Notes: generated from the letters alone by a model not told the origin. DNA of 64,000 bases from a virus (IMGVR_UViG_3300049742_000009:1927-65926), one strand, 5' to 3'. Shown: positions 6,663-28,501, numbered from the stretch's first letter. Program-made: numbers and translations.

Positions 6663-7715
6663 TCAATGCCCCTTCACGTAAACCAAGTTGGACTTCTTGA
6701 GTCGGAGTGGAACTAGAATCAGCTCAGTCACTATGGCCTTGAAGTCGTAGTAGGCGTTGAACGCCTTAAGGATATAGAAGGATGGCCAGCAGCGAAGCAC
6801 TCGCCACACACTTAGCTTACGTTTACGGATCGCATAAGCCAAGCTAGGGCCGAAGAGAAGTACCTCACTAGAAGCCATCCATGCGGCCACTACTAGCGGG
6901 GAGCCACCGTCCGCCATCCACCACACGGGCAGTGCCACCATGAGCGGTGAAAGTAGTATCTCTACAAGGGAGATGGCCACCCATAGCGCGAGCATGGGCT
7001 TACGTCGGACCATGTTCCAGCCATGCTGTCGGACGTTCTGGAAGTAGCCGGTCTTCCAGCGGTTGAGCTGGGCGCACATGAAGTGGCGTGAGGTCGGCTC
7101 GGCGGCGTAAGCCACCGCGTCGGCGACGTACGCCGCGCCGTGTCCGGCTATCTGCTGAGACCAGGTGTAGTCGATGTCCTCGACCAGTGTACGGTCGGGG
7201 AACCCCCCGAACTCGCGCAGCGCGTCGAGCCGGAAGGCAGAGCAGCAGCCAGAGCATACCAGCGGCGCCCCGTAGTGGTCCTGGACGGGCCGGAACCAGT
7301 GGAAGCCAGAAAGGTACTCCATCTGCCGCGCCCGCTCCCACAGCGTGTCCTGAAACCGCGTGAGCACGCAACCGGCCGCGATGACCGTGCGGGGATCTGA
7401 GAACGGCCCCTTGATCAACTCCACGTAGTCAGGCGCCAGAACGGTGTCTGCATCGACCGGAAGTACCAGGTCCGTTGAGCAGTGGTCTAGCGCGAAGTTC
7501 TGCGCCTTGGCTTTGCTGCCCAGGTTGACCCCGGGACTGAGTACGGTCACACGCTCAAAGCCTCGGGCCACGTTCGCCGTGCCGTCTGTGGAGCCGTCGT
7601 CAACGACGATGATGGCTTCGGGTGGGGTGCTCTGCGTGACCAGGGCAGCTAGCGTTTCGCCTATCCCCTCAACTTCGTTGTAAGCGGGGATGATTACCGT
7701 AAGACTAGCTGTCAC
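6663..7715 (-). CDS. processive membrane glycosyltransferase family 2 (IcaA/PgaC/cellulose-synthase-like)
   Basis: IPAYNE, VVDDGSTD, VDAD, QMEY, LVEDID and QLNRW (QxxRW), followed by about three TM helices. Confidence 0.9.
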   Translation of the reverse strand: MTASLTVIIPAYNEVEGIGETLAALVTQSTPPEAIIVVDDGSTDGTANVARGFERVTVLSPGVNLGSKAKAQNFALDHCSTDLVLPVDADTVLAPDYVELIKGPFSDPRTVIAAGCVLTRFQDTLWERARQMEYLSGFHWFRPVQDHYGAPLVCSGCCSAFRLDALREFGGFPDRTLVEDIDYTWSQQIAGHGAAYVADAVAYAAEPTSRHFMCAQLNRWKTGYFQNVRQHGWNMVRRKPMLALWVAISLVEILLSPLMVALPVWWMADGGSPLVVAAWMASSEVLLFGPSLAYAIRKRKLSVWRVLRCWPSFYILKAFNAYYDFKAIVTELILVPLRLKKSNLVYVKGH

Positions 7716-7821
7716 GGTTGCGCCTTGCCTTGATCTTCACGAGGATGCCGGATACCAGTGCCAGCAGGGCAAGCACACCGTAGATGATGAACGAGAAACC
7801 GGTGTGTGCTAGCATATACAT
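7705..7821 (-). CDS. 38 aa peptide consisting of a LAXTG sortase-type sorting signal (not in ORF track)
   Basis: MYMLAHTGFSFIIYGVLALLALVSGILVKIKARRNRDS: LAHTG, about 20 hydrophobic residues, basic tail; overlaps the GT2 start. Confidence 0.7.
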   Translation of the reverse strand: MYMLAHTGFSFIIYGVLALLALVSGILVKIKARRNRDS

Positions 7822-7822
7822 T

Positions 7823-8245
7823 TTATAGGAGACTTTCTCTTAGATCGCGTGAGGCTTCATTGTGCCAACGTTCGATGCAATCAAGGCACTTGTTTTGTGA
7901 CATGTGAGTTACCTTGGCCTTGCATCCGTAGCACGCATGGGTGTCGTGCTGGCACTCTAGACAGTACAGGTAACGGCGCGCGTCTGCATCGGACTTGAGG
8001 CGGCCGAGGTCGTTCTTGAGTAGGATCATGGGCTGGTCGTGGCTAGGGCCACCTGACCGATCTCGGGCCATTCTCCCCTGGACTCGGACGATTTGTGCGG
8101 CAGGCTCTAGGTCGTCAACACTCTCTCCGGGGTTGGCGGTTGGATCGTACATGGGAAGCGTCTTGTAGACCCATGTGTCGTACTCAGCTTCCACGGCCAG
8201 AACGGCGGGGTTGACGTGGTGTGTGCAGCGCGTCCCCTCGCACAT
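7823..8245 (-). CDS. Cys/His-rich hypothetical protein
   Basis: 140 aa; CLECQHDTHACYGC...CLDC. Confidence 0.6.
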   Translation of the reverse strand: MCEGTRCTHHVNPAVLAVEAEYDTWVYKTLPMYDPTANPGESVDDLEPAAQIVRVQGRMARDRSGGPSHDQPMILLKNDLGRLKSDADARRYLYCLECQHDTHACYGCKAKVTHMSQNKCLDCIERWHNEASRDLRESLL

Positions 8246-8530
8246 CTACTCCCCCTCATCTTCCAAGTGCCATAGAGTGCTGAACACTTCACTCAGCTTG
8301 TCGGCATCGGCCCACTCGTCCCTGCCGCTGTAGTCGTACGGCAGGATCTTGCGGAGCTTGGCTATGAGTCCCCTGTCTAGGGTCCTGATACCAAGCGTGC
8401 AGTTGTGGGAACCCGACCAGCCGCAGGCGCAGTTGACTTGAACGTGTGTGAGTGCCACTAGAGTTTCCTTATGATCAGGTAGGACACTATGATGATGGCT
8501 ACCGCCAAGATGAAATCCTCTGCGAACCAC
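8246..8530 (-). CDS. hypothetical zinc-finger protein
   Basis: 94 aa; H...VNCACGWSGSHNC. Confidence 0.55.
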   Translation of the reverse strand: MVRRGFHLGGSHHHSVLPDHKETLVALTHVQVNCACGWSGSHNCTLGIRTLDRGLIAKLRKILPYDYSGRDEWADADKLSEVFSTLWHLEDEGE

Positions 8531-8752
8531 TTAGCCATCTTCACACTCACACATTGCGGGGAACACCTTGTTACCGGGGCACTGGCAGTCGGGTGGGCAT
8601 GCACCGCACCCGCAGTGGCAACCGATGGGATCTTCGTTACCTACAAGGTAGGCAGCTTCAAGGACGCGCGCGTATCGCCTGTCACAGTAGGCGCATTCGC
8701 CTTCCTTCTGGTGGGCGACCGTCAGGCGCCGCAGGTCAGTGGCGGCGCTCAT
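8531..8752 (-). CDS. metallothionein-like Cys-rich protein
   Basis: CAYC...GCHCGCGACPPDCQCPG...CECEDG; 10 Cys in 73 aa. Confidence 0.55.
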   Translation of the reverse strand: MSAATDLRRLTVAHQKEGECAYCDRRYARVLEAAYLVGNEDPIGCHCGCGACPPDCQCPGNKVFPAMCECEDG

Positions 8753-8954
8753 CCCTGCCCCCCTGGACGTAGCCGCGACCGTAACTCGCCTTGCCGTAGC
8801 CGTCGATGAGATCCAGCATCTTCGCGTACTGGATCTTGCCGATTACAGGAAGGACGTTCTCCTGTATGAACTCGTCAAGCTGGATCTCCAGTCCACTGCG
8901 GTCGGACTCTTCTACGATGCCCTCAGGCTTAGCCAAGTTACGGCCGCGACCCAT
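8736..8954 (-). CDS. hypothetical protein
   Basis: 72 aa; YGKASYGRGYVQG tail typical of small phage proteins. Confidence 0.6.
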   Translation of the reverse strand: MGRGRNLAKPEGIVEESDRSGLEIQLDEFIQENVLPVIGKIQYAKMLDLIDGYGKASYGRGYVQGGRDERRH

Positions 8955-8957
8955 GTT

Positions 8958-9116
8958 TTACTCCTCGCGATAGTTGAACTGGCAGCAGGGGGCCGCCATT
9001 ACGATATGGAGCGCCTGGTGTTCGGTAAACCCTTCGGCCACGAGTGAGGCGTACAGCTCGTGCATGAGCGCTGCCTGTTCCTGTAGCGTCTGCGCTTCCG
9101 GTGGTTCCCAAGTCAT
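8958..9116 (-). CDS. hypothetical protein (52 aa, not in ORF track)
   Basis: MTWEPPEAQTLQEQAALMHELYASLVAEGFTEHQALHIVMAAPCCQFNYREE. Confidence 0.65.
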   Translation of the reverse strand: MTWEPPEAQTLQEQAALMHELYASLVAEGFTEHQALHIVMAAPCCQFNYREE

Positions 9117-9164
9117 CTTAGCGTCTTCCTTGTCGGGTTTGTAGGGTTTGGGGTGTGGCGTGCG

Positions 9165-10031
9165 TCACTTAGCCCCGGCTACCTCGGCCCCGCAGGCTGC
9201 GTAACCAGCAACGTCAATCCAACTGTCTCGCTTGCCGGATGACCACATGAGCCGAGACAGCTTGAGAACGATCATGATGACAGCCACGTCGTGGTCGTCC
9301 AGGACTTCGCAGCCCGAGCCGTCGCGTCCTTCCTTGCCGAAGCCCAGCGAAGTAAGCGCCTGGGCGGCCCTGTTGAAATCCTTGCCAGGCGGGCCGTACT
9401 GGTTGTTGCGGTCGCCGCAGATCAACCGCTTGGCTTCGTCCAGAGTGGCCGCGCGCACGGAATCGGGCGGGAACGACTCGGCAGGCTTGATGGTCCCCGC
9501 GTCAGCGAACCCCTCGGCTATGCGCGTCTCTTGGAGTGTGTCGATGGGATCGTCGTTAAACACCTTGCGCCGCTTGAGGCGTTCCATGGCTTCGCGCAGG
9601 GCGGCTTCGCGCAGGGCGTCGGTGGTGGATACCTCCGGGTGCGCTTCGTTCTTGCCAGGGATGAGGCGGCAGTCGGTTTCCCAGTGTGGATCAAACACAC
9701 AGTTCAACTCGTACACAGGAAGGCCAAGTTCATGCGCTAGTGCAACCTCAAGGCAGGCCCCCGCCGAGTCGTACCAACCGTCCAGGACTGAGACCAGGCA
9801 GTCTGTACCGCTGGAGTACATGTACTTCGCAAGGCCCTGGATCTGATCCACGCTCTTGTCAATGTACGTCCAGCGGGGGCGAGTTGTATCCCCGTCGAAG
9901 TTCTCGGCAGGGTTTATGACTGAGTGCCTGGCGTCACGCAGCAGCTCAGCGGCGCTGTTGAACGCCTCGTAATTGTAGTTCGGATAGCCGGTCATCGGAC
10001 CGGCAAGATAGATACGCCTAGTCACTCTCAC
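9165..10031 (-). CDS. DUF4406 (nucleoside deoxyribosyltransferase-like) fused to DUF6378-like domain
   Basis: N-term IYLAGPMTG..NYNYEAF...VINPAEN...GW..S.GA.LE...A..LG; C-term LDEAKRLI.GDR..QYG...F...LKLSR...DSW.D.AGYAACG. Confidence 0.8.
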   Translation of the reverse strand: MRVTRRIYLAGPMTGYPNYNYEAFNSAAELLRDARHSVINPAENFDGDTTRPRWTYIDKSVDQIQGLAKYMYSSGTDCLVSVLDGWYDSAGACLEVALAHELGLPVYELNCVFDPHWETDCRLIPGKNEAHPEVSTTDALREAALREAMERLKRRKVFNDDPIDTLQETRIAEGFADAGTIKPAESFPPDSVRAATLDEAKRLICGDRNNQYGPPGKDFNRAAQALTSLGFGKEGRDGSGCEVLDDHDVAVIMIVLKLSRLMWSSGKRDSWIDVAGYAACGAEVAGAK

Positions 10032-10191
10032 ACCTTTCGTGCTCTGCGTCGGTCATGAGGTCACACTCCCATGCCTTGGTCACGATCCCATCGTCCCAAT
10101 CGACGGTCACGGTTTGCATGTCCCGCGTCTGCGCGCTGACAACGCCATGATTGTCGTCGTACCACACGCTATCGCCTACTTGGAACCTCAC
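10018..10191 (-). CDS. SH3/KOW-like small beta protein (57 aa, not in ORF track)
   Basis: MRFQVGDSVWYDDNHGVVSAQTRDMQTVTVDWDDGIVTKAWECDL... Confidence 0.6.
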   Translation of the reverse strand: MRFQVGDSVWYDDNHGVVSAQTRDMQTVTVDWDDGIVTKAWECDLMTDAEHERCESD

Positions 10192-10364
10192 GTCAACTCC
10201 GTACGCTTACATGTGCAGTTGCAGTCCCATGACACGAAATCCTTGTGTCCATCGCCATCATCCGCCCACCAGCCGGTATTGCAGCATGGCTCCCAGCATT
10301 CGCAATAGCCTTCATCGTTATCGCGGCAGGTACGGGAGAGCCAGCCAGTGCAGCGACACTTCAC
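10188..10364 (-). CDS. Cys-rich small protein (58 aa, not in ORF track)
   Basis: MKCRCTGWLSRTCRDNDEGYCECWEPCCNTGWWADDGDGHKDFVSWDCNCTCKRTELT; GTGA overlaps at both ends. Confidence 0.6.
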   Translation of the reverse strand: MKCRCTGWLSRTCRDNDEGYCECWEPCCNTGWWADDGDGHKDFVSWDCNCTCKRTELT

Positions 10365-11416
10365 GCCAACTCAACCCCATATGAGGCAGTAACACGGCCC
10401 GCCGCAGGATCGACAAACAGCAGCCATTGAGTTGGCCTCGACTGCGCCGCAAGAGTCTCGGCAGCAAATGTGTTTGTGGATTCCGTCGAACCGTTCGCCC
10501 ACGCGGAGCGATGGTTCAACGGCACACGCGCCAGGGAGTGATAGTGGCCCATCATCACGTCCTGAAAGTCGCTGTCTTGACCAAGGCCACCGGAGCCCCA
10601 TGAATGCACCTTCTTGCCGAGTCCGTACCAGGGAAAGCCCATTGACCCTCGGATCTGATCGCCATGGATCAGAAGTGCCTTGTACTCGCCGATAGTTGCT
10701 ATCTTGTACCAGGCGCGTTCCCCCACCGGGTCAGCCATGTTGAACTGGAGCCTCGGCTCATCCCTGAGCATGAGTTGGATGACTCGGTAGACCATGCGGT
10801 CCGAATTGTCTTCCGGTCCAAACATGCCCTTGCGGCCGATGCGTCCGTGATTACCCTGGACAGCTTCGACAGTGACGGTTTCGAAGTTGGCGAGCAGATA
10901 GCGAAGAAAGTCCACGACGATCCCGGGTGTTGACTCGAACACCTGCCGGTAAAGCGTAGAATCGATGAGCCACTGTTGTCCTGGGAAGATATCCACGCCT
11001 TCCACCATGTCCCCGAGCATTGGTACGACACAGTGACGAACAGGGTGGTCGGCTCGTTGCACATTGGCAATCCGTACGATCTTCTCGGCGTAGCGCATGA
11101 CGCGCGTGCGGCAAACGTCCGTGTTGTAGTCGGGAGTTATCTTGCCTGTCTGTAGGTCAGACAGAAGAGGGACGCACACCTCTTCCGGGCCGTCCCCCTT
11201 TGGCTTGAGTAGTCTGGGCGATTTCACAGGATGGATAGCTACACCGGCCAGAGCGTCCTGGACGGCCTCCCATACCGTTGACAGGTAGTCGGCCCGCTTG
11301 TGCTTCACCTCGTACAACTGGCGCTGCAAGTTGTCCCGTTGGGTCTTGAGCCTGCTGATCTCTGCCTGCATCTCGGCTTCGTTGTGCAGGTCCGCGAAGT
11401 CTCCGCCGTCATTCAT
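10361..11416 (-). CDS. calcineurin-like metallophosphoesterase with N-terminal coiled coil
   Basis: LSDLQTG, LGDMVEG, GNHG, IHGD, GHYH motifs; start moved to ATG 11416. Confidence 0.85.
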   Translation of the reverse strand: MNDGGDFADLHNEAEMQAEISRLKTQRDNLQRQLYEVKHKRADYLSTVWEAVQDALAGVAIHPVKSPRLLKPKGDGPEEVCVPLLSDLQTGKITPDYNTDVCRTRVMRYAEKIVRIANVQRADHPVRHCVVPMLGDMVEGVDIFPGQQWLIDSTLYRQVFESTPGIVVDFLRYLLANFETVTVEAVQGNHGRIGRKGMFGPEDNSDRMVYRVIQLMLRDEPRLQFNMADPVGERAWYKIATIGEYKALLIHGDQIRGSMGFPWYGLGKKVHSWGSGGLGQDSDFQDVMMGHYHSLARVPLNHRSAWANGSTESTNTFAAETLAAQSRPTQWLLFVDPAAGRVTASYGVELA

Positions 11417-11687
11417 CGTTCCGCTCCTCACAGCTACACGCGCCCTTGCGGTGCCTGCCCAGCGAATATGCGGATGGCAGGTAGTCAGGCTCCACGCGTG
11501 ACTTAAGAGCCTTATGGATGGAGGCGGTTGTAAGCCTGACGTTCCTAAAGGTGCGCACGATGCTAAGCACGGCTGCCTCGCCGTGCTCTTCGCGTACCAG
11601 TTCAAGCATTACGCCAACTCCGCATCGTGGGCCGCGACTTACAGATGCGGCCCTAGCGTCGTCCTCCAGATCGTCCCAGTCATTCAC
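11409..11687 (-). CDS. small HTH-like/zinc protein upstream of the metallophosphoesterase
   Basis: GPRCGV...SAYSLGRHRKGACSC; start moved to GTG 11687. Confidence 0.65.
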   Translation of the reverse strand: MNDWDDLEDDARAASVSRGPRCGVGVMLELVREEHGEAAVLSIVRTFRNVRLTTASIHKALKSRVEPDYLPSAYSLGRHRKGACSCEERNDE

Positions 11688-11836
11688 AGCAGTACCTTTC
11701 CACAGCGTGGGCAGTAGGAGTAGGTTACGGTAGACACCGGACTTACCTCCCACTCCTCGGCCCACCCGACATTAAGCACGAGTTGAACAAACCTCTTGGA
11801 CCAACTGTGCTTACCGCCATCGGACTTACAGCTCAT
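11684..11836 (-). CDS. small zinc-ribbon protein (50 aa, not in ORF track)
   Basis: MSCKSDGGKHSWSKRF...YSYCPRCGKVLL. Confidence 0.6.
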   Translation of the reverse strand: MSCKSDGGKHSWSKRFVQLVLNVGWAEEWEVSPVSTVTYSYCPRCGKVLL

Positions 11837-11839
11837 TGC

Positions 11840-12085
11840 CTAGCCTTTGGTGATGTTGACGACGTTGCGCTGGCAGTGATGGCAATACCTAGGGCTTGCC
11901 CCTTCGCCCTTCTTAGGTGCGTACATGAGGGGCCATAGCTCGAACGAGTGCCCACCATGCTCCGTAGTGCAGAACTTGGCTGCGCAGTAGATACACTCAT
12001 AGTCTTCGTAGAAGTGGCCGAGCGCTTCACATGGAGCGTCCACGGGCTCAGGCTCCCTTCCTAGTGGAATGAAGATATTCCACAT
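11840..12085 (-). CDS. Cys/His-rich hypothetical protein
   Basis: 81 aa, two C-x4-H...CxxC units; RBS AGGAG upstream. Confidence 0.65.
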   Translation of the reverse strand: MWNIFIPLGREPEPVDAPCEALGHFYEDYECIYCAAKFCTTEHGGHSFELWPLMYAPKKGEGASPRYCHHCQRNVVNITKG

Positions 12086-12237
12086 GATCTCTCCTAAGTA
12101 CGGGGTACCACTCCCGCTCCCGAACTACGTCCGCAATGCTGACTGTTACCCGACCCGCTTTCTTCACGGCTGCTACGTACGCGCATGGTGGGTACGCTGT
12201 CGTCCGCTTAGGCTAAGTCGTTCGGCCCAACTCATGA

Positions 12238-12279
12238 CGAACGGGTGACCGTGCTGTCAGGTCAACGGCCACCCGTTCG
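12238..12279 (-). terminator. stem-loop, putative terminator or processing site
   Basis: CGAACGGGTG...CACCCGTTCG inverted repeat immediately after the 12284 stop. Confidence 0.55.
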
Positions 12280-12283
12280 CGTC

Positions 12284-12634
12284 TTACTGGTCCGCCCCGT
12301 CGCCCTCGGCGTCGTTGGTGCGGTTGAGAAGAGCGGTGAGCCGCGCCAGAGCCTCGGCCTCGGCCGCCTCGTTCGCCTCAAGGGCGTCGATCTGCGGACG
12401 GTACCGGGCAGCCGCCTTACGCGACTTCTCGGCAGCCTTGTGCGCCTTCTCGTAGTCACGAGTCGCCTTGACCAGCGGGGAGCCGGGACGGCTCTTCTTT
12501 ACGGGGGCCTCGGTCGTCTCTTCCTGCACGTCAGTCACGGGGACTCCATCCCAGTCGTCATCGTCATCGAACGGTTCTGCGTTGATCTCTACAAGGTCTT
12601 CCGCCGGGGGCGGTGTTGCCTTCTTACGAGGCAC
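12284..12634 (-). CDS. hypothetical protein (acidic N-terminus, helical C-terminus)
   Basis: 116 aa; GGAAGGAAG RBS. Confidence 0.65.
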   Translation of the reverse strand: MPRKKATPPPAEDLVEINAEPFDDDDDWDGVPVTDVQEETTEAPVKKSRPGSPLVKATRDYEKAHKAAEKSRKAAARYRPQIDALEANEAAEAEALARLTALLNRTNDAEGDGADQ

Positions 12635-12854
12635 TAGCTTCCTTCCTTATTCCTTTGGGGCAAACTCCGTTGGGGTGATGCCCATGGCAAGCGTCCGTAG
12701 CGCGATGCTTGGGCAACAGGCCAGGGAGTTCTACCACTTTGGCTATCTCACGCAAGTCATAACCTGACTGCCATAGCCAAAGAGCAGCCTGCGCCTTGTT
12801 CATGAGGATATGAGATTGGGTCAAGGGTGAAAGGAAATCCTCGGCCTTAGTCAT
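12624..12854 (-). CDS. hypothetical protein
   Basis: Start moved to ATG 12854 (MTKAEDFL...), AAGGA RBS upstream. Confidence 0.5.
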   Translation of the reverse strand: MTKAEDFLSPLTQSHILMNKAQAALWLWQSGYDLREIAKVVELPGLLPKHRATDACHGHHPNGVCPKGIRKEASAS

Positions 12855-12864
12855 CTTCCGTTCC

Positions 12865-13548
12865 TTACTGGAGAGTTGCGGCGATCTGACGCGCCTGCGC
12901 CTCGTCCATACCCTCTGTGTTGATACCACGTGAGGTCAGGAACTCGCGCAGCCCGTCAGGCCACGGTGCGGGCGGAGGCGGTGCAGCAGCAGCCGGGGGC
13001 GGCCCCCACTGGTTCGCAGGCGGCGCGGCAGGCTGTGCGCCCCCCCACTGCCCGGCGAACTGGCTCTGCGCTGGCGCACTCTGGGCCGGGGGGCCTGCCT
13101 GCCACTGCTGGGCGGGCGGAGGCTGATTGCCCGAGCCGCTGTCGTACTGCGCGCGCGGGAACGCTGCCTCGTACTGCTCAGCGGTCTGTACGTCCTGCGG
13201 CGAGAAATCGGCCAGGAAGTAGGCGCCGGACTTCTGACCCTGCGCCGGGGTCTGGTTCAGCCTGCCCAGAACCTTCTTACCGATCTTCTTTTTGAGCTGC
13301 GGAACGAGGGCAGATCCCCCGATTCGCGCACCCTGTAGGAAGGTTGGCTTACCCTGGTTCTGAGGGTCCGGCAGGTCGATAATGGCAACGTCAGCCGTTA
13401 CCATGTCTGTAGGGTCCAGAGTCCCGTCAGGACGATTGAAGTTCACAGTCTCCACTGACTCCGGGAAGATGAGGAACAGCTTCCCCAGCCACTCGGGATG
13501 ATCGCGCGGCGTGAACTTAGCCCCGTGATCGGGCTGATCGTAGCTCAC
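12865..13548 (-). CDS. probable single-stranded DNA-binding protein
   Basis: Beta-rich N-terminal domain plus Q/P/A-rich tail; sits next to the exonuclease. Confidence 0.55.
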   Translation of the reverse strand: MSYDQPDHGAKFTPRDHPEWLGKLFLIFPESVETVNFNRPDGTLDPTDMVTADVAIIDLPDPQNQGKPTFLQGARIGGSALVPQLKKKIGKKVLGRLNQTPAQGQKSGAYFLADFSPQDVQTAEQYEAAFPRAQYDSGSGNQPPPAQQWQAGPPAQSAPAQSQFAGQWGGAQPAAPPANQWGPPPAAAAPPPPAPWPDGLREFLTSRGINTEGMDEAQARQIAATLQ

Positions 13549-13730
13549 TTACTCCCCTTCGGGTTGATAAGGGCTTCTACTTCGGAAGCCTTGAACCTGC
13601 GGTGTCCGCCGAGCGTCTTGAACGATGACAGCTTACCTGCGTTTGCCCAACGGGTCACGGTCTTAGGGTCAACCTTGAAACGTCGAGCTACCTCGCTTGG
13701 AGTCAACAGGTCGTCTTGTTCATCACTCAA
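13545..13730 (-). CDS. bldC: BldC-like MerR-family DNA-binding protein
   Basis: LLTPSEVARRFKVDPKTVTRWANAGKLSSFKTLGGHRRF closely matches Streptomyces BldC as recalled; TTG start 8 nt after GGAGG. Confidence 0.9.
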   Translation of the reverse strand: MSDEQDDLLTPSEVARRFKVDPKTVTRWANAGKLSSFKTLGGHRRFKASEVEALINPKGSK

Positions 13731-13747
13731 CTCTGACACCTCCCTTC

Positions 13748-17851: not shown

Positions 17852-17852
17852 G

Positions 17853-19602: not shown

Positions 19603-19606
19603 GATC

Positions 19607-19690: not shown

Positions 19691-19694
19691 CGGT

Positions 19695-19844: not shown

Positions 19845-19867
19845 GGCGTATGTGTCCTCTTCTCTGT

Positions 19868-20202: not shown

Positions 20203-20244
20203 TGTTCCTGGCACCCTTCCGTGCGTGTGTGTTTGATGAGAGGA

Positions 20245-20625
20245 GGGACGGGGCGGGCCGAGTTGTCCAGCTCCGGCAGTGTTGCCGTAAGCCCGGCCCC
20301 GTCCTATTCAATTGTGAGTCCCCCGGGGGAAGCGAGTCGGCGGGAGTCAAAGCCACACGGGTCTAGGCTCTTTGCCACCCGCGTATTACGCGTCGTCCCT
20401 TGGTCGCGTGTCCCCCGGGAGTTTGGGGGGTGCATGCCTCAAAGCCCTATCGCATGCTTGCCAAGTCCCTATGTTCGTAACTTGGTTTCCCACGTCCTCA
20501 AGGTCCGTCCCACCTTGAGGGTTCCCCCGCCGTACGCGGCACCACAACGCCTACGGCGGGGAGCTAGGCCCCTGTCGAGTCATTAGCGGTCGGACCGTGA
20601 AAGGGTCGGCCCTACTCGACAGGGG
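20245..20625 (-). other. non-coding array of at least seven inverted repeats
   Basis: Stems at 20246-20304, 20355-20384, 20432-20457, 20461-20485, 20496-20520, 20525-20561 and 20569-20625. Confidence 0.7.
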
Positions 20626-20630
20626 AGCAC

Positions 20631-21650: not shown

Positions 21651-21757
21651 GTGGTGCCTACCTTTCCGAAGGTGTCGGACAGTTGAGAACCGTAAGGTTC
21701 AGCCATGGCACCCCCTAGGTCAAGGGGGAACGGGGGTGCCATGGAGTACCCGGCGGA

Positions 21758-21883
21758 TCAAGCGGCTTTGCACTCGCCGCTATTGGGGTCGCACCCTGCG
21801 TCTTCGCACTCCGCACATAGGGGACCATCACCATAGGTAACCCACATGCAGTAGAGACAAGCGCAGGGCTTGACGCCAGACAT
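21758..21883 (-). CDS. Cys-rich microprotein (41 aa, not in ORF track)
   Basis: MSGVKPCACLYCMWVTYGDGPLCAECEDAGCDPNSGECKAA; 7 Cys. Confidence 0.6.
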   Translation of the reverse strand: MSGVKPCACLYCMWVTYGDGPLCAECEDAGCDPNSGECKAA

Positions 21884-21885
21884 GA

Positions 21886-22044
21886 TCACTTTCCCTTGCG
21901 ACGCTTGAGCAGCGCCTTACGCGCGGCGCGCGCCTCGGGGCTTTCCGGCCACTGAGTACGACGGTTGTTCCAGAAGCGCTCTTCCGCTTCCAGCTCATCC
22001 GGGGCGCCGTACGAGAGGGCAGCTTCCTTGCGGTGCGTAGTCAT
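21886..22044 (-). CDS. hypothetical protein (52 aa, not in ORF track)
   Basis: MTTHRKEAALSYGAPDELEAEERFWNNRRTQWPES...; ATGA overlap. Confidence 0.6.
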   Translation of the reverse strand: MTTHRKEAALSYGAPDELEAEERFWNNRRTQWPESPEARAARKALLKRRKGK

Positions 22045-22235
22045 GAGATCACCCATCCTTGTGCCAGCAGCGCGGGGCCGTGCTGGGCCGAGTGGTGGCC
22101 GCAGAACAGAAGCTCTGAGCGGTCCTTGTACGGCCTCTCGGCGCGAACCTGGGCAGCTGCACCACAGGCGTCACAGCGGTCGGCCAGAGACAGCGGAGCG
22201 GACGATTCGGGGACAGTTTCGACGGGAGTAGCCAT
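22041..22235 (-). CDS. actinobacterial small zinc protein (DRCDxCG...LLFCGHH family)
   Basis: LSLADRCDACGAAAQVRA...LLFCGHH..QH..AL. Confidence 0.75.
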   Translation of the reverse strand: MATPVETVPESSAPLSLADRCDACGAAAQVRAERPYKDRSELLFCGHHSAQHGPALLAQGWVIS

Positions 22236-22260
22236 GGTGAGTCACCGTTCCTTGATCAAG

Positions 22261-22431
22261 TTAGTGAGCCGAAGCGGCAGCCGGGGCCATCTCAACGCCC
22301 GGACGGTAGTACCGCGCGGCTACGGGGGTGGTGTCGTAGACCGGAGCGTGATCCTTCATCCACTGCTCATCGGCGGCGCGGTCGGCGGCGCGGTCGGCGG
22401 CGGACTTCTCTTCGTAAGGGACGTAGGCCAT
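22261..22431 (-). CDS. first ORF of the leftward early operon (56 aa, not in ORF track)
   Basis: MAYVPYEEKSAADRAADRAADEQWMKDHAPVY... Confidence 0.55.
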   Translation of the reverse strand: MAYVPYEEKSAADRAADRAADEQWMKDHAPVYDTTPVAARYYRPGVEMAPAAASAH

Positions 22432-22561
22432 GGCTAGATCATCTTCTCTGATGACTTAGGGGGGACGGGTGGACAAGCGTTCCGTGAGTTTCTGGTTACT
22501 CTCGGGCAGATCCCGCGCGGCTTTAGTATCCGCTGTGAGCAGGGGCAGTCTCGAAACGCAG

Positions 22562-22629
22562 TGCCAGCTACGGGAGTCGAACCCGTACGCGGTCATGATG
22601 CCGATGCCACCGGCTGTGTATTGCTGGCA
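22562..22629 (-). ncRNA. tRNA-like element (acceptor stem plus T-arm, no canonical D-arm)
   Basis: UGCCAGC...GCUGGCA stem stacked on UACGGG-UUCGACU-CCCGUA. Confidence 0.55.
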
Positions 22630-22913
22630 TGTGTGGGGGCGACGTGCGCCCCCGGTTTTCCTTGTGCGCTCTCTGTGGAGTTCTGAACGATCATTCAGTC
22701 ACAATGGGCAGAAGAGCCGCTACACTCTGTAGAGATCATAACCTCGTACCTCAAGATCAACGATCTTGCCGGAAGCTCCCTAGAACGAGGTCAAGTTCGG
22801 AACTCCGTAACGGAGTTGGGAGCGTTGGGCGCGGTGGTCCAACTAGCCGGAACCTCTATGGGATCGGAACCGTAGTCCCTGTCCTCTCTGCCCTGTTTTG
22901 TTCTGATGCCTCA

Positions 22914-22942
22914 AGACTGGCTCTTTCTTGCGTGCGTGTCAA
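22914..22942 (-). promoter_or_regulatory. putative leftward housekeeping-sigma promoter
   Basis: TTGACA-N17-CAGTCT on the minus strand, facing the early operon. Confidence 0.5.
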
Positions 22943-23207
22943 CCGTCACACCAAGAAAATCCGGACGATCTTCGCATCTGTACGCCCAGGGATGGGCGAA
23001 CTCGACCTAGGCTAACCGAAGTTGAGGTCTTTCGGGTGCGTCAAGAAAATCTTGGAGCACGATGGGTGATGTCGCAATGCGTAGGGGCGCGAGTGCGGTC
23101 CGTGTCCATATGCGCCGCTCGGGGCTTGCGAAGAGCTTGAGATCCACGCATCGCAACGCATGCACGGCAGTTCAGTGTTGCGGGCCACTCAATCGCGCCT
23201 AGTGGCT

Positions 23208-23237
23208 TTGACCTCGCAAGGTTGCACCCGTAAGACT
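23208..23237 (+). promoter_or_regulatory. putative rightward promoter of the repressor
   Basis: TTGACC-N17-TAAGACT about 60 bp before the repressor ATG. Confidence 0.4.
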
Positions 23238-23295
23238 TGTGAGTGTCAGGAAGGAACGCGACGCACCACGACTCGGGAGGCAGTGAAGACATAAG

Positions 23296-23679
23296 ATGAC
23301 TACTAGCGGACAAGACCGGTTCGCACAGTGGCTAAACATGACGATGGAGAACAGAGGCATACGCGCAACAGAGCTAGCCAAGAAGCTCAAGGTCACGGAC
23401 TCGGCGGTAAGCCGTTGGAGGTCTGGCGCAGGACTGCCCAGCATGGACGCGTGCCTGCGTATGGCTAAGGTACTCCGCGTGGAAGATCCCATGAGGCTAG
23501 CCGTAACGGCCGGGCTTGTGGACGGGGACTTGATCGGCAAGGCCCCCCTGCCTCTGCCAGAGCCGACCGCTAGGCGTAACCGAGTAAAGGATCAGTTGGC
23601 CAACATCAAGGGCCTTACTGCAAAGGAACGTCAACACCTGTTGGACGCTTACGACGAGAGGATTGAAGAGGCATCATGA
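23296..23679 (+). CDS. XRE-family HTH repressor (putative immunity repressor)
   Basis: ELAKKLKVTDSAVSRWRSGAGLPS; divergent from the early operon. Confidence 0.85.
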   Translation: MTTSGQDRFAQWLNMTMENRGIRATELAKKLKVTDSAVSRWRSGAGLPSMDACLRMAKVLRVEDPMRLAVTAGLVDGDLIGKAPLPLPEPTARRNRVKDQLANIKGLTAKERQHLLDAYDERIEEAS

Positions 23680-24032
23680 ACGAGACTGTTCGACGCGTCA
23701 TCCTGTGGATCGTCTCCCTAGGCGGTTGGAGTTGGGCCATAGGCGCGGCCACTTGGGCGGTACTCGAATTCGATCCGTCCGAAGGGCACTTCGCACCTCA
23801 GTGGCTGTCCCTGTCGGTCTTCCTGTCCATGGGGTTCGCTATCGCCGCTGGCGTCACCATAGGACGCCTCAACAGTGTTCGCACCCTGTCTGACATCTTC
23901 CGGGCTGGCACCCTCAGTGAGCGAATCGAGCGCAACACGAAGATGATCGATGAGCTGTATGACGGCCAACGGGACAAGATCGAACGCAACACTAAGTCGA
24001 TCGAAACCCTCAAGGAAGAGATCAAGAAGTGA
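23676..24032 (+). CDS. two-TM membrane protein with coiled-coil tail
   Basis: Two hydrophobic helices, then a repeated KIERNTK; ATGA overlap with the repressor. Confidence 0.75.
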   Translation: MNETVRRVILWIVSLGGWSWAIGAATWAVLEFDPSEGHFAPQWLSLSVFLSMGFAIAAGVTIGRLNSVRTLSDIFRAGTLSERIERNTKMIDELYDGQRDKIERNTKSIETLKEEIKK

Positions 24033-24208
24033 ACTCCTGTCTACTGCACCACACTTACCATGAGTTCGCCCGGGAGTGTTGGACGTACCACCTGACTTGG
24101 ATGCGTGAGCGCACGCACATCCCTGACAAGTGGCGGGCCGAGTTCTACGAACAGGCAGTAGAATCCGCAATCCTGGGCGATACATGGGAGGTTAGGCATG
24201 GACATTGA
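24029..24208 (+). CDS. hypothetical protein (59 aa, not in ORF track)
   Basis: MNSCLLHHTYHEFARECWTYH...; GTGA overlap. Confidence 0.55.
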   Translation: MNSCLLHHTYHEFARECWTYHLTWMRERTHIPDKWRAEFYEQAVESAILGDTWEVRHGH

Positions 24209-24368
24209 CCCCTACAACCCTGTAGAAGTACACGACTCGCGTCGCGCTGCTGATAGCCGCGCACTGCACATCTACGGGAAGCACGCTAAGGCATTGGGGT
24301 ACACTGTAACTGTTCGCCGAACGCCCGGACGGAAGGGCTTCGGGATCTACCTAGTTAGGAAGTCATGA
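24198..24368 (+). CDS. hypothetical protein (56 aa, not in ORF track)
   Basis: MDIDPYNPVEVHDSRRAADSRALHIYGKHAKALGY...; GGGAGG RBS, ATGA overlap. Confidence 0.6.
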   Translation: MDIDPYNPVEVHDSRRAADSRALHIYGKHAKALGYTVTVRRTPGRKGFGIYLVRKS

Positions 24369-24706
24369 CTGTCCAGGAACGGGAAAGCACATGGGGCCAG
24401 GAGTGGCGGCAGCAGCGCATCGCTCGCCCTCGATACGGCGTGCTGGACTTTGACGCATGGCGCCCGTACTTTGTGACGCCACGCATGATCGCCTACATGA
24501 ATCGCCCTAGGGCGCGGCGCACTTGGGTCGTGTTCGGTGGCTTCTGGTTCATGCTCCTCGCGTTCTTTGCGTGGGCCATAGGCTTCTGGATGGTGCTCAC
24601 GATGGCTGCTACGTGGGACTTCCTTCTGCTCTCGGTGTTCGCCATGGTGTGGACCGTTGGGACCGTGGTGCAGAGGCTTCGAGCCCGGCGGCGTGCCCGC
24701 CACTGA
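24365..24706 (+). CDS. membrane protein
   Basis: Hydrophobic C-terminal half (2 TM) with basic tail. Confidence 0.7.
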   Translation: MTVQERESTWGQEWRQQRIARPRYGVLDFDAWRPYFVTPRMIAYMNRPRARRTWVVFGGFWFMLLAFFAWAIGFWMVLTMAATWDFLLLSVFAMVWTVGTVVQRLRARRRARH

Positions 24707-24709
24707 AAC

Positions 24710-24760
24710 AAAAAAGCGCCCCCCTCTCGGTACAGGGCAGTACCGGGAGGGGGGTCTTTT
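24710..24760. terminator. bidirectional intrinsic terminator
   Basis: AAAAAA-GCGCCCCCCTCTCGGTAC-loop-GTACCGGGAGGGGGGT-CTTTT between convergent genes. Confidence 0.85.
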
Positions 24761-24761
24761 G

Positions 24762-24965
24762 TCATGCGGCGTGCTTATCGTCCGAAGCCTTGTTTGGAAC
24801 GACGTAGGTCACGCCGAGCGCGCCCAGCACCGCGAGGACGACGGAAACCGCGTCCCCCGTGTTGAAGCCACCGTCAGCGATCGCCACGCCGAGCGCAGTG
24901 CCACCAGCCGCAAGACCGGCCGCCACTGCCTTGGCGTACACAGAGACCTTACCGAGTACGTTCAT
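24762..24965 (-). CDS. holin
   Basis: 67 aa, 2 TM; YAKAVAA...LGALGVTYVVPN pattern, directly after the endolysin. Confidence 0.75.
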   Translation of the reverse strand: MNVLGKVSVYAKAVAAGLAAGGTALGVAIADGGFNTGDAVSVVLAVLGALGVTYVVPNKASDDKHAA

Positions 24966-25010
24966 TTTCGTTGCCTTTCAACGGAGTTGCCCGGCTGGTT
25001 CGTCGGGACA

Positions 25011-26039
25011 TCAGGGGGCCGGGATGAGAAGCCCGGTCTTGCTTGCGAGAAGGTTCAGCACGTCGAAGTTGGGCGTACCCGTACCCGCCCAGCCCTGGAG
25101 CTGCTGGAACTTCTTACATGCGGCCGTAGTTGCCGGACCGTAGATCCCGGGGCCGCTGCTGTAGTCGAGCCCGACGACGCGGGCTAGCGCCTTCTGGAAC
25201 GCCAGCACGTCGGATCGATGCGCGCCCGGGTGAGCCTTCGCGTACTGGAGATTGAACAGGGACACGTACGGCGGCGGCGGGACCGGTGTGGGCGTCGGAG
25301 CGGGCGCGGGCGCCGGGGCTGGCTCGTCCGGCGCCTGGTCGGTCGCCGCAGGAACGTTGATCACCTGGCCGACATCGATCTCGTCAGGGTTGGTGATCTG
25401 AGGGTTCACGGCCAGCAGCGCGTCAAGGGACACGCCCAGGCTGCGCGCAATGGCAGACAGGGTGTCGCCCGCCTTGACGGTGTACGTGTCCGTACCGGCC
25501 GCAGGCGGCGTCGGCGTGGTGTCCGGCGGGGGCGGCGCGGATGCGGTACTGTACTTCGGCCGACCGTAGCCTACGATGTAGTTCGAGTGCCGAACCATGC
25601 GCTTGCATACGTTGTCGATGTTGCCTTCGATGGTGTGCACGTCGGAACCTGATACGCTCTCAACTATACCCACGTGGTCGATAGCTGAGATGGAATTGGT
25701 ACCGTTCCAGTCGAAGAACACGATGTCTCCGCGCTGGATTCCGGCGGTGTCCGTGTGCCACTGGCCACGGCTCTGGAACCACTGTGCGTGATTCACGGTG
25801 TAGTCACGCTTCGTACCACCACACACGTTCTGCGAGTTACCGGAGTGCCAAGCCGCGTATGTGATGGTCATGTTGCACCACGGCTCACCATCCTCGCCGT
25901 ACCAGTGCGTGATGAAGTTGACGTTGTTGCCGTTCGTCTCGTCCGCGCCGATACAATAGATCATCCATGCGATCATGGAGTCCACCGATCCGTTAGCCGG
26001 AACGGACGGCTTAGGAAGCGGCTCAACTGTGCTGCTCAT
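25011..26039 (-). CDS. endolysin (CHAP + LysM + peptidoglycan-binding domain)
   Basis: PWCNM...GDIVFFDW...HVGIVE...TIEGN; YTVKAGDTLSAIA...NPQI; QKAL...GIYGPAT..A.KKFQ. Confidence 0.9.
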   Translation of the reverse strand: MSSTVEPLPKPSVPANGSVDSMIAWMIYCIGADETNGNNVNFITHWYGEDGEPWCNMTITYAAWHSGNSQNVCGGTKRDYTVNHAQWFQSRGQWHTDTAGIQRGDIVFFDWNGTNSISAIDHVGIVESVSGSDVHTIEGNIDNVCKRMVRHSNYIVGYGRPKYSTASAPPPPDTTPTPPAAGTDTYTVKAGDTLSAIARSLGVSLDALLAVNPQITNPDEIDVGQVINVPAATDQAPDEPAPAPAPAPTPTPVPPPPYVSLFNLQYAKAHPGAHRSDVLAFQKALARVVGLDYSSGPGIYGPATTAACKKFQQLQGWAGTGTPNFDVLNLLASKTGLLIPAP

Positions 26040-26283
26040 AAGGCGAGCTACCTTTCGTCCAAGTGCGGGGAGGCTCTATAGATGCGCCTCGGATTATGGC
26101 CCTATACGCCTGATCACGAGTAACCGGAAGGTCGCTGTTGACGCCACCCCTGTCTATGTAATAGACAGGTTCGCCGATATAGGCTGTGTGAATCCATCCA
26201 CACAACACCTCACAGTCGCAGGGAACTATCTTAGTCTCCCTGACAACTCTTACAGTAAAGGGCGATTCCTGATACTCAGTCAC
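26023..26283 (-). CDS. hypothetical protein
   Basis: 86 aa between the NlpC/P60 gene and the endolysin; overlaps both. Confidence 0.55.
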   Translation of the reverse strand: MTEYQESPFTVRVVRETKIVPCDCEVLCGWIHTAYIGEPVYYIDRGGVNSDLPVTRDQAYRAIIRGASIEPPRTWTKGSSPYEQHS

Positions 26284-26969
26284 AACACTCTCCGAGCGAA
26301 GTTGGGTCGGTAGTAACTCATGGACACCTGCACAACTCCCGAGCTGGGGTTCTGTGCTGCGATGTACTGCCCGTTGCCTACGTAGATAGCAACGTGGTAA
26401 GCCGCGCCGGGCAGACCCCAGAAGAGCAGGTCGCCAACTTCCAAGTGGGACAGGCTCACAGACCTACCCTGTAGCGACTGCATCTCAGATGTACGATGCA
26501 GGGTTATGCCGATCTTGGCATATGCCGCCTTGGTCAGGCCCGAACAGTCGTATGCGGAAGGTCCGTTACCGCCCCATGAGTAGCGCTTCCCAAGCTGGGC
26601 GCGCAGGAAGGCCACCAGAACCGATGTCGGCTTAGTGGGCTTGGGTGCGGGGTGGACCTTCTTAACCTCAGCCTTGGGCTTAGGCTTTGACTTGTGCTCC
26701 TCGACCTTCTTAGGTGGCTTCGGCGGCGAATCGTGCTGCGTGTTACCAGGCACGGCCGCCATCGGCCAGGTAGGGAACTCGTGTCCCTCGAAGATGGGAG
26801 CGGGAGCTATGAACTCATCCTCGTCGTCGTCGTGTTCGCGAGGCTCACCGACAGAGCCCCCGGTCGTGAAGGGTATCCACGCACCGGCTGTCACAACAGA
26901 GACAGTCAGCGCTAGGGCCTTTCTCCACGACCGGAGGCCAGCAACGGCCGCGCCGTGCTTACCTGTCAT
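26280..26969 (-). CDS. secreted or membrane-anchored NlpC/P60 peptidoglycan endopeptidase
   Basis: N-terminal basic plus hydrophobic leader, K/P linker, QLGKRYSWGGNGPSAYDCSGL...GDLLFW...HVAIY. Confidence 0.9.
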   Translation of the reverse strand: MTGKHGAAVAGLRSWRKALALTVSVVTAGAWIPFTTGGSVGEPREHDDDEDEFIAPAPIFEGHEFPTWPMAAVPGNTQHDSPPKPPKKVEEHKSKPKPKAEVKKVHPAPKPTKPTSVLVAFLRAQLGKRYSWGGNGPSAYDCSGLTKAAYAKIGITLHRTSEMQSLQGRSVSLSHLEVGDLLFWGLPGAAYHVAIYVGNGQYIAAQNPSSGVVQVSMSYYRPNFARRVL

Positions 26970-27502
26970 GCCGCAGGATCTCCAAGCTGTGCGAGTGCGG
27001 ACTTGAGCTTGTTCACAGCCTCGGCGTGCGTCGCAGTCAAGGCGTCCACCTTACTCTGCAACTCGCTTCGCTTGACCTCAAGTTCGCCGACGATCTCGTT
27101 CCGCTTGGTGTTCCCGTCTGCGATCACCTGCGCCGCCTTGGAGTTGGCGTCCGCGATGATCTGGTCACCAGCCGCGTGAGCATTGGCGATCACCTTGTCA
27201 GCAGCGGCCTTTGCCTCGGCGGCCTGCTGATCTGCGGCCTGCTGAGCAACGGCCAGGAGACGCGCAACGTCGCCAATCGGGTTGCTAGGCGCAGGCGGTG
27301 CAGCGGGAACCGGAGGGAGCTGCGCTGTCACGGCACCGCTCCGGTAGCGCGACAGATCGCCGTTAGCGGCTGCGAGCTGCGTAAGAGCGCTGCTGTAGTC
27401 AGCGACGATCCGGTCTAGGAAGTCGTCAACCTCGTGCGGATCGTAGCCCCGTAGCGACTTGACCGTAAATGTCTTCTTAGTGATGTCGTCAGGGGTCAGC
27501 AT
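26966..27502 (-). CDS. divIVA: DivIVA/Wag31-like protein
   Basis: MLTPDDITKKTF...LRGYDPHEVDDFLD signature, Pro linker, then LL..AQQ.AD...A coiled coil. Confidence 0.9.
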   Translation of the reverse strand: MLTPDDITKKTFTVKSLRGYDPHEVDDFLDRIVADYSSALTQLAAANGDLSRYRSGAVTAQLPPVPAAPPAPSNPIGDVARLLAVAQQAADQQAAEAKAAADKVIANAHAAGDQIIADANSKAAQVIADGNTKRNEIVGELEVKRSELQSKVDALTATHAEAVNKLKSALAQLGDPAA

Positions 27503-27514
27503 GAGTCACCTCGT

Positions 27515-28501
27515 TTAGTACGGGCTTCCGGGGACTATCCCGAAGTACCCGTGCGCCTCATCATTCTGGATATAGTTCAGTGCCGCAGCGACGTTCGCCA
27601 ACGGGTCGTAAATGTTCAACGATGTTCCGGCAACGTGATAGTAGTCGAACGTTGCCTTGATCGTCTGCATTAGGCCCCGACTGGGATCGCCATTCGCTGC
27701 GTTAGAGTCATCCAAGTTTATTGCGTTCGGATCGCCGGAAGACTCTGCCTGTATTAGGGCGAGTATCTGGTCTATCTGCGGCCCTCCAGAGAGTGGCACC
27801 AACTGCTCAGCCTGCTGGATGATGGGTATCCAGAACGATACGTCAGAATGCTGACAATATCCAGATACCGTCCCTGGGCAATCCGGCGCGATGGCCGGTG
27901 TGATCAGGCTGCCATCGCTGGGCGGCGTGACGACCGGCGGGGGATTGTCCACGGGCGGCGTCACGACCGGCGGAGCGGGCGGCCACGGCCCCTCACACGC
28001 CTTCCCGTCGCCGTCCATGTCCAGGGCGTGCCGGTAGCCCGGCTGGCCCCTGTGCAGCCCGGCAGGCGCGTCCGTGCAGTCTCGATACCAGACCCTGACG
28101 TGGTGTCCGTGGCCGCCATCGTGACGGCCGACCGGCGGGACCGGTACGGTGCCAGCGGGGGTGCAGTGGCCATCCGGCAGGTGGACGTGTCCGCCTCGGA
28201 AGATGAGGCTGTAGTCGTCCGGCCGGTCGCCCGCGATGATGCCAGGGTTGATGGCCTCAAGGTCTGCCAGCGCCACGCCGTAACGCGCCGCGATGGTCGA
28301 GAGGTTATCGCCACGGTTGACGATGTAGTCCTCACACGCGGTAGGAGTAGCAGGAGTCGTTACATCGCCACCAGCGGGCGCAGTAGTAGGGGCAGCGTTC
28401 GCCGGGCCAGCGAACACAATCGGAATAGAACCGGTGGTGCCAACTGCCAGTGCGGCAGCGGCAATCCTCTTCTTGTTCGGACTCGGCTTTGCGTGCTTCA
28501 T
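27515..28501 (-). CDS. secreted lytic transglycosylase (signal peptide, LysM, excalibur, SLT)
   Basis: Leader ending PANA/AP; YIVNRGDNLSTIA; YRDCTDA...GQPGY...LDMDGDGKACE; AESSGDPNAIN...GLMQTI..TF. Confidence 0.88.
   Translation of the reverse strand: MKHAKPSPNKKRIAAAALAVGTTGSIPIVFAGPANAAPTTAPAGGDVTTPATPTACEDYIVNRGDNLSTIAARYGVALADLEAINPGIIAGDRPDDYSLIFRGGHVHLPDGHCTPAGTVPVPPVGRHDGGHGHHVRVWYRDCTDAPAGLHRGQPGYRHALDMDGDGKACEGPWPPAPPVVTPPVDNPPPVVTPPSDGSLITPAIAPDCPGTVSGYCQHSDVSFWIPIIQQAEQLVPLSGGPQIDQILALIQAESSGDPNAINLDDSNAANGDPSRGLMQTIKATFDYYHVAGTSLNIYDPLANVAAALNYIQNDEAHGYFGIVPGSPY

Follow-up and report, generated by a model that had tools for sequence, protein, structure and literature searches.

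Look-alikes of Streptomyces growth and development factors in an uncultured rhizosphere actinophage probably belong to three separate modules

Introduction

The described systems closest to the genes considered here come from actinomycetes and their phages. BldC of Streptomyces (PDB 6AMA and 6AMK; Schumacher et al. 2018, cited in PMC12266134) delays development according to the account of it in PMC6428758, and BldC orthologues have been reported from most mycelial actinomycetes but lost repeatedly, including on the Corynebacterineae branch (PMC4255298). Gp36 of the lytic phage D29 is a BldC/Xis-like protein which binds to direct repeats of the phage genome and controls phage genes (PMC12266134), and gp52 of mycobacteriophage Fruitloop interferes with Wag31, impeding superinfection by Rosebush (Ko and Hatfull 2018, as cited in PMC7474061). 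Streptomyces phages depend on growing cells for their replication, phage-triggered sporulation has been described, and faster sporulation has been proposed as an escape of the host (PMC10276819). Tape-measure proteins and endolysins of actinophages use SLT and NlpC/P60 domains to cut peptidoglycan (Piuri and Hatfull 2006, as cited in PMC4255298), and class E sortase signals, known from SrtE1 of S. coelicolor (PMC5148588), combine an LAxTG motif, a hydrophobic helix and a basic tail. Here we analyse a 64,000-nucleotide stretch of viral DNA (IMGVR_UViG_3300049742_000009:1927-65926, hereafter the window), in which an initial annotation had found look-alikes of BldC, of DivIVA, of a secreted Rpf-like SLT protein, of an NlpC/P60 protein, of a tip-glycan-type (CslA) GT2 glycosyltransferase and of a class E sortase signal, and had read these six features as one host-like network for growth and development.

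Results

Pfam, NCBIfam and PDB searches recovered each of the six features where it had been placed, without exception on the minus strand (Table 1), and we consider it probable that they are real genes of an uncultured actinophage which fall into three modules of separate function: a late lysis operon holding the SLT, DivIVA and NlpC/P60 look-alikes (module A), a BldC-family regulator (module B) and a cassette of a GT2 and a mini open-reading frame (mini-ORF) with the sortase-type signal (module C). Their labels fared unevenly, as those of the BldC family, of NlpC/P60 and of a sortase-type signal hold, and those of Rpf, of CslA and of a DivIVA orthologue do not. SLT (727), NlpC/P60 (509), MerR/Xis-type helix-turn-helix (253) and GT2 (70) domains are frequent in phage records; the uncommon parts are the DivIVA domain, the BldC-grade identity and the LAHTG mini-ORF.

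The BldC look-alike is a genuine BldC-family regulator. Its gene has a TTG start 8 nucleotides after a strong Shine-Dalgarno sequence (GAAGGGAGG), and the protein, a single MerR-like helix-turn-helix domain in the size range of the family (~60–80 amino acids), scores 93.6 bits against the NF033787 cut-off of 77. In a hand count 34 of 52 core residues (65%) are identical to those of Streptomyces BldC in 6AMA, with the recognition helix and wing almost unchanged. The protein is 77–89% identical to a metagenomic clade of 57–64-amino-acid proteins and 75% identical to BldC of Georgenia soli, whereas actinophage Xis/MerR-like proteins in general reach only ~40%. It therefore resembles Streptomyces BldC in size, in domain make-up and in the recognition helix, but differs in being shorter (61 amino acids), phage-borne, a member of the metagenomic clade and encoded among replication genes (Cas4-like nuclease, exonuclease, primase/polymerase), with a Cas4-like PD-(D/E)XK nuclease (13748-15103) and a phrog_870 protein (12865-13548) directly at its flanks. 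We rejected the protein as a phage excisionase or recombination directionality factor; this needs a cognate integrase in the same element, and neither a tyrosine nor a serine integrase (PF00589, PF00239) is present in the CheckV-complete genome, so that an excisionase role is unlikely. By analogy, the best functional model is D29 Gp36, as described also a small MerR/Xis-like protein with no excision role, although the protein in the window reaches the BldC family cut-off, and the ~40% figure refers to actinophage Xis/MerR-like proteins and not to Gp36 itself.

The DivIVA look-alike passes the domain models (PF05103, E = 6e-15; TIGR03544, 59.9 bits against a cut-off of 22) and falls below the equivalog cut-offs of Wag31 (52 bits against 260) and GpsB (43 against 91), so it is a DivIVA-domain protein and not an orthologue, and we refer to it as mini-DivIVA. 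It has in common with DivIVA, Wag31 and GpsB the N-terminal lipid-binding domain, and its C-terminal coiled coil resembles part of Wag31 (E = 8e-14 against the Wag31 model), but it is 178 amino acids long, at most 33–35% identical to cellular DivIVA and encoded in a phage lysis operon. Its own family consists of ~18 short metagenome proteins at 53–99% identity, the next step down being cellular DivIVA at 33% or less, and a hydrophobic and basic loop pair is kept in 18/18 members. A scan of IMG/VR with the mini-DivIVA alignment gave no match, JGI metagenome contigs yielded just cellular DivIVA genes (≤35% identity), and the gene had no match in cultured actinophages (50,697 phage records). The only annotated phage DivIVA, that of Enterococcus phage VEsP-2, was rejected as a precedent, as the feature next to it is annotated as a bacterial gene that was transduced. 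Fruitloop gp52 can be likened to mini-DivIVA by description alone, as a phage protein tied to the host DivIVA/Wag31 scaffold; in the available excerpts of PMC7474061 it is described neither as a DivIVA homologue nor as a lysis-operon gene.

The two hydrolases next to mini-DivIVA are neither Rpf nor RipA. The Rpf label falls, as the Rpf domain PF06737 has no match in the whole phage genome (a C. glutamicum positive control matched) and the catalytic domain of the secreted SLT protein is PF01464, not of Rpf type. This domain is 52% and 60% identical to residues 1214-1316 and 1967-2041 of the tape-measure protein of the same phage, and by this paralogy the secreted SLT is a phage-internal duplication, not a copy of a host factor. 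In the NlpC/P60 protein (PF00877, E = 3.5e-25) the Asp-Cys-Ser-Gly motif and the histidine (Cys142, His192) are invariant in the homologue alignment, and because none of the RipA, RipB and RipC equivalog cut-offs is reached it is a generic NlpC/P60 protein and not RipA. Its anchor is weakly hydrophobic and rich in Gly, Ala, Ser and Thr, as in signal-arrest-release (SAR) segments. The tail before this anchor (LRSWRK) was considered as a GpsB/DivIVA docking motif and discarded, since six full-length homologues show just a generic basic n-region there. Compared with the tape-measure and endolysin domains of actinophages, which cut peptidoglycan with the same two folds, SLT and NlpC/P60 are here exported as proteins in their own right, each with a signal or anchor sequence, and are encoded in a lysis cassette.

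The SLT, mini-DivIVA and NlpC/P60 genes are packed into one late operon, in which neighbouring genes, from the tape measure via the three minor tail proteins down to the holin-like one, are separated by -17 to +45 nucleotides, and the NlpC/P60 gene overlaps the mini-DivIVA gene by 4 nucleotides. Shagrat, the one Rhodococcus equi phage whose annotation was compared for gene order, is arranged alike, its gene 26 being the positional counterpart of the 78-amino-acid coiled-coil protein, but there the small protein is followed directly by endolysin and holin. Since Shagrat runs from tail to endolysin and holin without interruption, the block of SLT, mini-DivIVA, NlpC/P60 and the 86-amino-acid ORF is taken as an insertion in the lysis cassette. 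Such an operon position would favour a role at lysis over one in early host takeover. The 67-amino-acid holin-like protein matched no NCBIfam family.

In module C, the mini-ORF starts with an ATG one base after the upstream stop, and its 3' end shares 11 nucleotides with the GT2, whose start codon is GTG. The catalytic residues of the GT2 (D40, D88, D90, E179, D180, Q216, R219 and W220, forming the D, DxD, ED and QxxRW motifs) are invariant in 13 homologues, and a C-terminal transmembrane segment lies at residues 240-268. The tip-glycan label does not apply. The best NCBIfam match is PgaC_IcaA (103.6 bits against a cut-off of 422.3), the NodC models also scoring among the best but likewise far below theirs, and the CelA model scores weakly, with 35 bits confined to residues 145-227. 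In the PDB the membrane GT2 6YV7 matches best. CslA is near-universal in Streptomyces; we rejected an identity with it on the weak cellulose-synthase score, on the lack of a GlxA-like neighbour in cellular genomes and on the presence of this GT2 in just 13/301 genomes of the Streptomyces-like family. An equivalog PgaC/IcaA synthase of poly-N-acetylglucosamine was likewise rejected, its score being far under the cut-off. PgaC and IcaA have PgaD and IcaD as their small partners, and the phage pair is similar in that a processive-type membrane GT2 stands beside a very small membrane protein, but here the partner is a 35–40-amino-acid peptide with a sortase-type signal and no deacetylase or export gene lies alongside. 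The phage itself encodes no sortase. Taken alone the LAHTG motif says little, as the six reading frames of the window contain L[PA]xTG nine times, which is close to chance expectation; it is meaningful only because it is conserved in other genomes. A predicted complex of GT2 and mini-peptide from paired alignments (median 0.30, mark 0.32) weighs neither for nor against binding.

The cassette is accessory. When Logan contigs of four sequencing runs were placed on bases 6001-26000 of the window, runs X16 and X22, from two studies, contained a clean joint 6690->7818 with 1127 bases missing (Table 1); a 258-nucleotide contig of X22, for example, covers 6533-6690 and 7818-7917 with 0–2 mismatches. 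As the joint lies in near-identical contigs, near-identical phages exist with and without the cassette. Near-identical contigs cover the BldC region in three of the four runs. Depth was lower over the GT2 bins, but this was given no weight, because genes cannot be ranked by contig depth. The sizes of GT2-bearing contigs recur in neither the DivIVA-family nor the BldC-family match list.

The GT2 family is also found on bacterial chromosomes. Full-length chromosomal relatives at 53–58% identity occur in Nonomuraea, Actinomadura, Actinoallomurus, Spirillospora, Streptomyces and Arthrobacter crystallopoietes, and the copies in Streptomyces-like genomes are 51–65% identical to the phage GT2. Among sampled genomes the GT2 was found in 4 of 401 across the phylum, 13 of 251 in one order and 13 of 301 in one Streptomyces-like family, the bearers being 6.5–9.4 Mb in size; a separate collection scan of genome contigs gave just distant GT2s. 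Closer relatives (66–75% identity) lie on short metagenome contigs, and the GC content of phage cassette copies is 54–61%, against 68–72% in the 13 cellular loci of the order sample. This phage-like composition and the closer metagenome relatives suggest that the cassette circulates among phages and was not freshly captured. All described parts of the phage fall at 52–65%.

Each of the 19 cellular loci has a homologous mini-ORF beside the GT2, directly upstream in 14, upstream and divergently transcribed in four and between the GT2 and the next gene in one. By this synteny the mini-ORF is a real, conserved partner of the GT2 family. Four loci (L190-L193, in genomes G1069, G1027, G1011 and G986) carry an MGYGHS-LPKTG-type mini-peptide on the opposite strand ~350 nucleotides upstream of the GT2, and their GT2 subgroup has a short N-terminal extension. 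Nine cellular loci and the phage (10/20) have an xTG-type motif (LAHTG, LATTG, LAYTG, LPKTG), the other ten cellular loci (10/20) an Ile/Leu-type motif (LPFIG, LPVIG, LPLIG, LPFLG, TPILG). The peptides share with class E sortase signals the LAxTG motif, hydrophobic helix and basic tail, but they differ in that half of the family has Ile or Leu in the place of Thr and in lacking a passenger, 3–6 residues preceding the motif and no passenger domain being present at any locus.

Comparative genomics backs the class E sortase signal that had been noted in the phage (LAHTG, transmembrane helix, basic tail). A class E sortase gene is adjacent in two genomes, G779 and G967 (213 and 202 bits against a cut-off of 160), the order being mini-ORF, GT2, sortase in one and GT2, mini-ORF, sortase in the other (L183, G779:C1:1093991-1098028; L189, G967:C4:4006700-4010734). 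Both carry xTG-type peptides, that is two of nine cellular xTG loci against none of ten of the Ile/Leu type. A genome of ~7000 genes holds a handful of sortase genes, so that chance would seldom place one beside the pair in two of 19 loci; the rough estimate is a few in 10,000. Other neighbours of the sampled cassettes are TetR and helix-turn-helix regulators, an S8 protease, DUF309 and a trehalase-like gene, the last a GH15 gene just downstream of an LAHTG-peptide/GT2 pair (L168:2596-4038, G326; TreH1 277 bits, under the cut-off). In G779 and G326 the single Glyoxal_oxid_N (GlxA-like) match sits on another contig than the GT2, and because the GlxA-like gene, where detectable, is thus separate, the cellular GT2 is not the cslA of a cslA-glxA operon.

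The source virus is a metagenome-assembled siphovirus from rhizosphere soil with no cultured host. The window covers bases 1927-65926 of one 65,926 bp contig (GC 59.5%), rated a complete, linear virus by IMG/VR and CheckV (CheckV 100%) and present in 24 public runs from 24 studies, of which 23 are labelled rhizosphere metagenome and one soil metagenome. Megablast against 50,697 phage records gave no near-identical relative of the region. The closest cultured relatives are R. equi phages, with 58–59% identity in the portal and 44–47% over the full length of a 1328-amino-acid tail protein; an IMG/VR scan with the portal returned just fragments of ≤6.7 kb and one distant contig, and a portal scan of genome contigs no match.

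The host signals are mixed. Portal and tail genes point to Rhodococcus/Gordonia phages, the endolysin CHAP domain (53–59% identity with the endolysins that phages of S. griseus and S. scabiei encode) points to Streptomyces, and the GT2 points to a Streptomyces-like host, being 65% identical to the copy in G729, the nearest cellular relative among the sampled genomes. The BldC cores of G729 (52/52 identical to 6AMA) and G779 (51/53) suggest that these genomes are Streptomyces or close kin. The phage genome holds no cutinase (LysB), and its absence was set aside as a host marker, as Shagrat is also without an annotated lysin B. To judge by these sequences the case for a mycelial actinomycete host is about evenly balanced, and that for Streptomyces itself is lower. 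Of the Streptomyces host assumed by the initial annotation a mycelial, Streptomyces-like host thus stays plausible, but the portal and tail genes resemble those of R. equi phages.

Table 1. Position of the genes and of the polymorphism in the window (aa, amino acids)
Feature	Position	Strand	Basis or remark
Membrane GT2, 350 aa, processive type	6663..7715	-	Pfam Glycos_transf_2, E = 1e-29
1127 bp presence/absence polymorphism	6691..7817	.	takes out the mini-ORF and nearly the whole GT2
Mini-ORF, 38 aa: three residues, LAHTG, one transmembrane helix, basic tail KIKARRNR	7705..7821	-	
BldC-family MerR-like DNA-binding protein, 61 aa	13545..13730	-	NCBIfam NF033787 (HTH_BldC)
Holin-like membrane protein, 67 aa, last gene of the late operon	24762..24965	-	transmembrane-like segment, residues 34-58; position of the Shagrat holin
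Endolysin: CHAP, LysM, PG_binding_1	25011..26039	-	Pfam
ORF, 86 aa, overlaps both neighbours	26023..26283	-	no Pfam, PHROG or NCBIfam match
NlpC/P60 endopeptidase, 229 aa, basic N-tail, SAR-like anchor	26280..26969	-	Pfam
Mini-DivIVA, 178 aa: N-terminal lipid-binding DivIVA domain and short coiled coil	26966..27502	-	Pfam, NCBIfam
Secreted lytic transglycosylase: signal peptide, LysM, Excalibur, SLT	27515..28501	-	Pfam
Coiled-coil protein, 78 aa, C-terminal transmembrane segment (residues 52-78)	28518..28754	-	phrog_5225; first gene after the tail genes
Tape-measure protein, 2138 aa, two SLT domains	34804..41220	-	context; source of the secreted SLT paralogue

Discussion

The gene identities, operon packing, paralogy, family boundaries, cassette indel and cellular synteny described above are best accommodated by three modules with separate roles. 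Module A would be an enlarged late lysis operon continuing from the tail genes, whose two exported hydrolases and endolysin would cut different peptidoglycan bonds at lysis, and whose cytoplasmic mini-DivIVA may bind curved membrane at poles, tips or septa and there place or time wall breakdown, or interfere with host DivIVA. In module B, the BldC-family protein would bind direct repeats and tune phage transcription like D29 Gp36, its near-unchanged recognition helix leaving cross-talk with host BldC targets possible. Module C is an accessory cassette, also present on Streptomyces-like chromosomes, whose processive GT2 may make or modify an envelope glycan on infected cells, for example masking receptors; the mini-peptide would be a small membrane partner of the GT2, and in its LAxTG/LPxTG forms it may serve a class E sortase of the host as substrate or client. 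The BldC and GT2 modules could each, independently, affect host development or envelope.

Neither a phage BldC orthologue, nor a phage-encoded DivIVA, nor a mini-peptide/GT2/sortase system is described in the literature searched, the coverage of which is incomplete. Three leads follow, each of them directly testable. A phage-only mini-DivIVA in a lysis operon would give a first indication that polar-growing bacteria are lysed or taken over with the help of a curvature-sensing scaffold. The phage clade of BldC-family regulators is relevant to the question of whether phages act against escape by sporulation. The third lead is the conserved pair of mini-peptide and GT2, which is mobile in phages and, in Streptomyces-like genomes, has a link to class E sortases.

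Several points weigh against three modules with these roles. The functions given to them are all inferred, and for a lysis role of a cytoplasmic DivIVA-domain protein no precedent was found in the same incompletely covered literature. Sortase processing is not general for the mini-peptide family, because half of its members carry Ile or Leu for the required Thr. Contigs of 39,372, 16,579 and 34,082 bp recur in both the DivIVA-family and the BldC-family match lists, which suggests that the two genes co-occur in relatives, as they would on a shared backbone also.

The alternative that survives best is a plainer one, in which the genes serve lysis and phage gene control only and the resemblances to host factors reflect widely shared domain families. 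The SLT, NlpC/P60, Xis-like and GT2 domains are indeed common in phages, and both the lysis-operon position and the precedent of D29 Gp36 agree with it. We nevertheless think it unlikely, as the BldC-grade score stands well above phage Xis proteins (~40% identical), the DivIVA domain is absent from cultured actinophages and the GT2 cassette is also present on host-type chromosomes, where it is linked to class E sortases.

Somewhat less credible, and in our view improbable, is a pair of independent host-interference devices, with the phage BldC keeping the host vegetative against its escape into sporulation, mini-DivIVA co-assembling with or blocking host DivIVA and so stopping tip growth or excluding other phages, and the operon position being incidental. 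The almost unchanged recognition helix and wing, the match of the mini-DivIVA coiled coil to the Wag31 model, and the precedents set out in the Introduction (the delay of development by BldC, the targeting of Wag31 by Fruitloop gp52, the dependence of Streptomyces phages on growing cells and faster sporulation as a proposed escape) all speak for such devices, but at 65% identity to Streptomyces BldC the phage protein is closer to the metagenomic, phage-type clade, and the mini-DivIVA gene is tied to the NlpC/P60 gene by its 4-nucleotide overlap inside the late operon.

More doubtful still is the bolder proposal that LAxTG/LPxTG mini-peptide, processive GT2 and class E sortase make up an undescribed envelope system. 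Here the peptide would couple the glycan or the GT2 complex to the wall, and the phage would have captured the two-gene core and would re-coat hyphae via the host sortase, its BldC independently blocking escape into sporulation.

A single coordinated toolkit copying the host network (BldC, DivIVA, CslA, Rpf, RipA, sortase) to steer hyphal development, as first proposed, is very improbable: a true BldC-family member and a DivIVA domain are present, a Streptomyces-like host is plausible, and three or more related contigs seem to hold the DivIVA gene together with the BldC gene, but the GT2 is not CslA, so that the association of CslA with DivIVA at tips cannot be transferred to the phage, the labels of Rpf and of a DivIVA orthologue fall as well, the genes are spread over three regions that probably differ in timing, and no cultured actinophage carries the set. 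Independent assortment had been named beforehand as half of what would speak against such a network, and it is seen for the GT2 cassette, which near-identical phages either carry or lack. That several of the supposed members do not bear out their labels cautions against over-reading thematic resemblance in phage genomes.

Other observations

A single tRNA gene, tRNA-Met (CAT), lies within the structural region (47838-47912, minus strand). On the plus strand, a gene resembling a Cro/CI-type helix-turn-helix repressor (23296-23679) is followed by two small membrane-protein genes, in a genome without an integrase, whose phage may be lytic or live as an extrachromosomal prophage. A 288-amino-acid fusion of DUF4406, which is nucleoside 2-deoxyribosyltransferase-like, and DUF6378 (9165-10031, minus strand) may have a role in nucleotide or DNA modification, and a 111-amino-acid protein (16231-16566, minus strand) carries an Rv2632c-like domain (Pfam E = 5e-7), of a family known from mycobacteria. 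In the region of divergent early genes, positions 22365-22403 reached a summed contig depth of ~300 with many loose ends and small joints in 4/4 runs, probably a GC-rich simple repeat that other organisms have as well.

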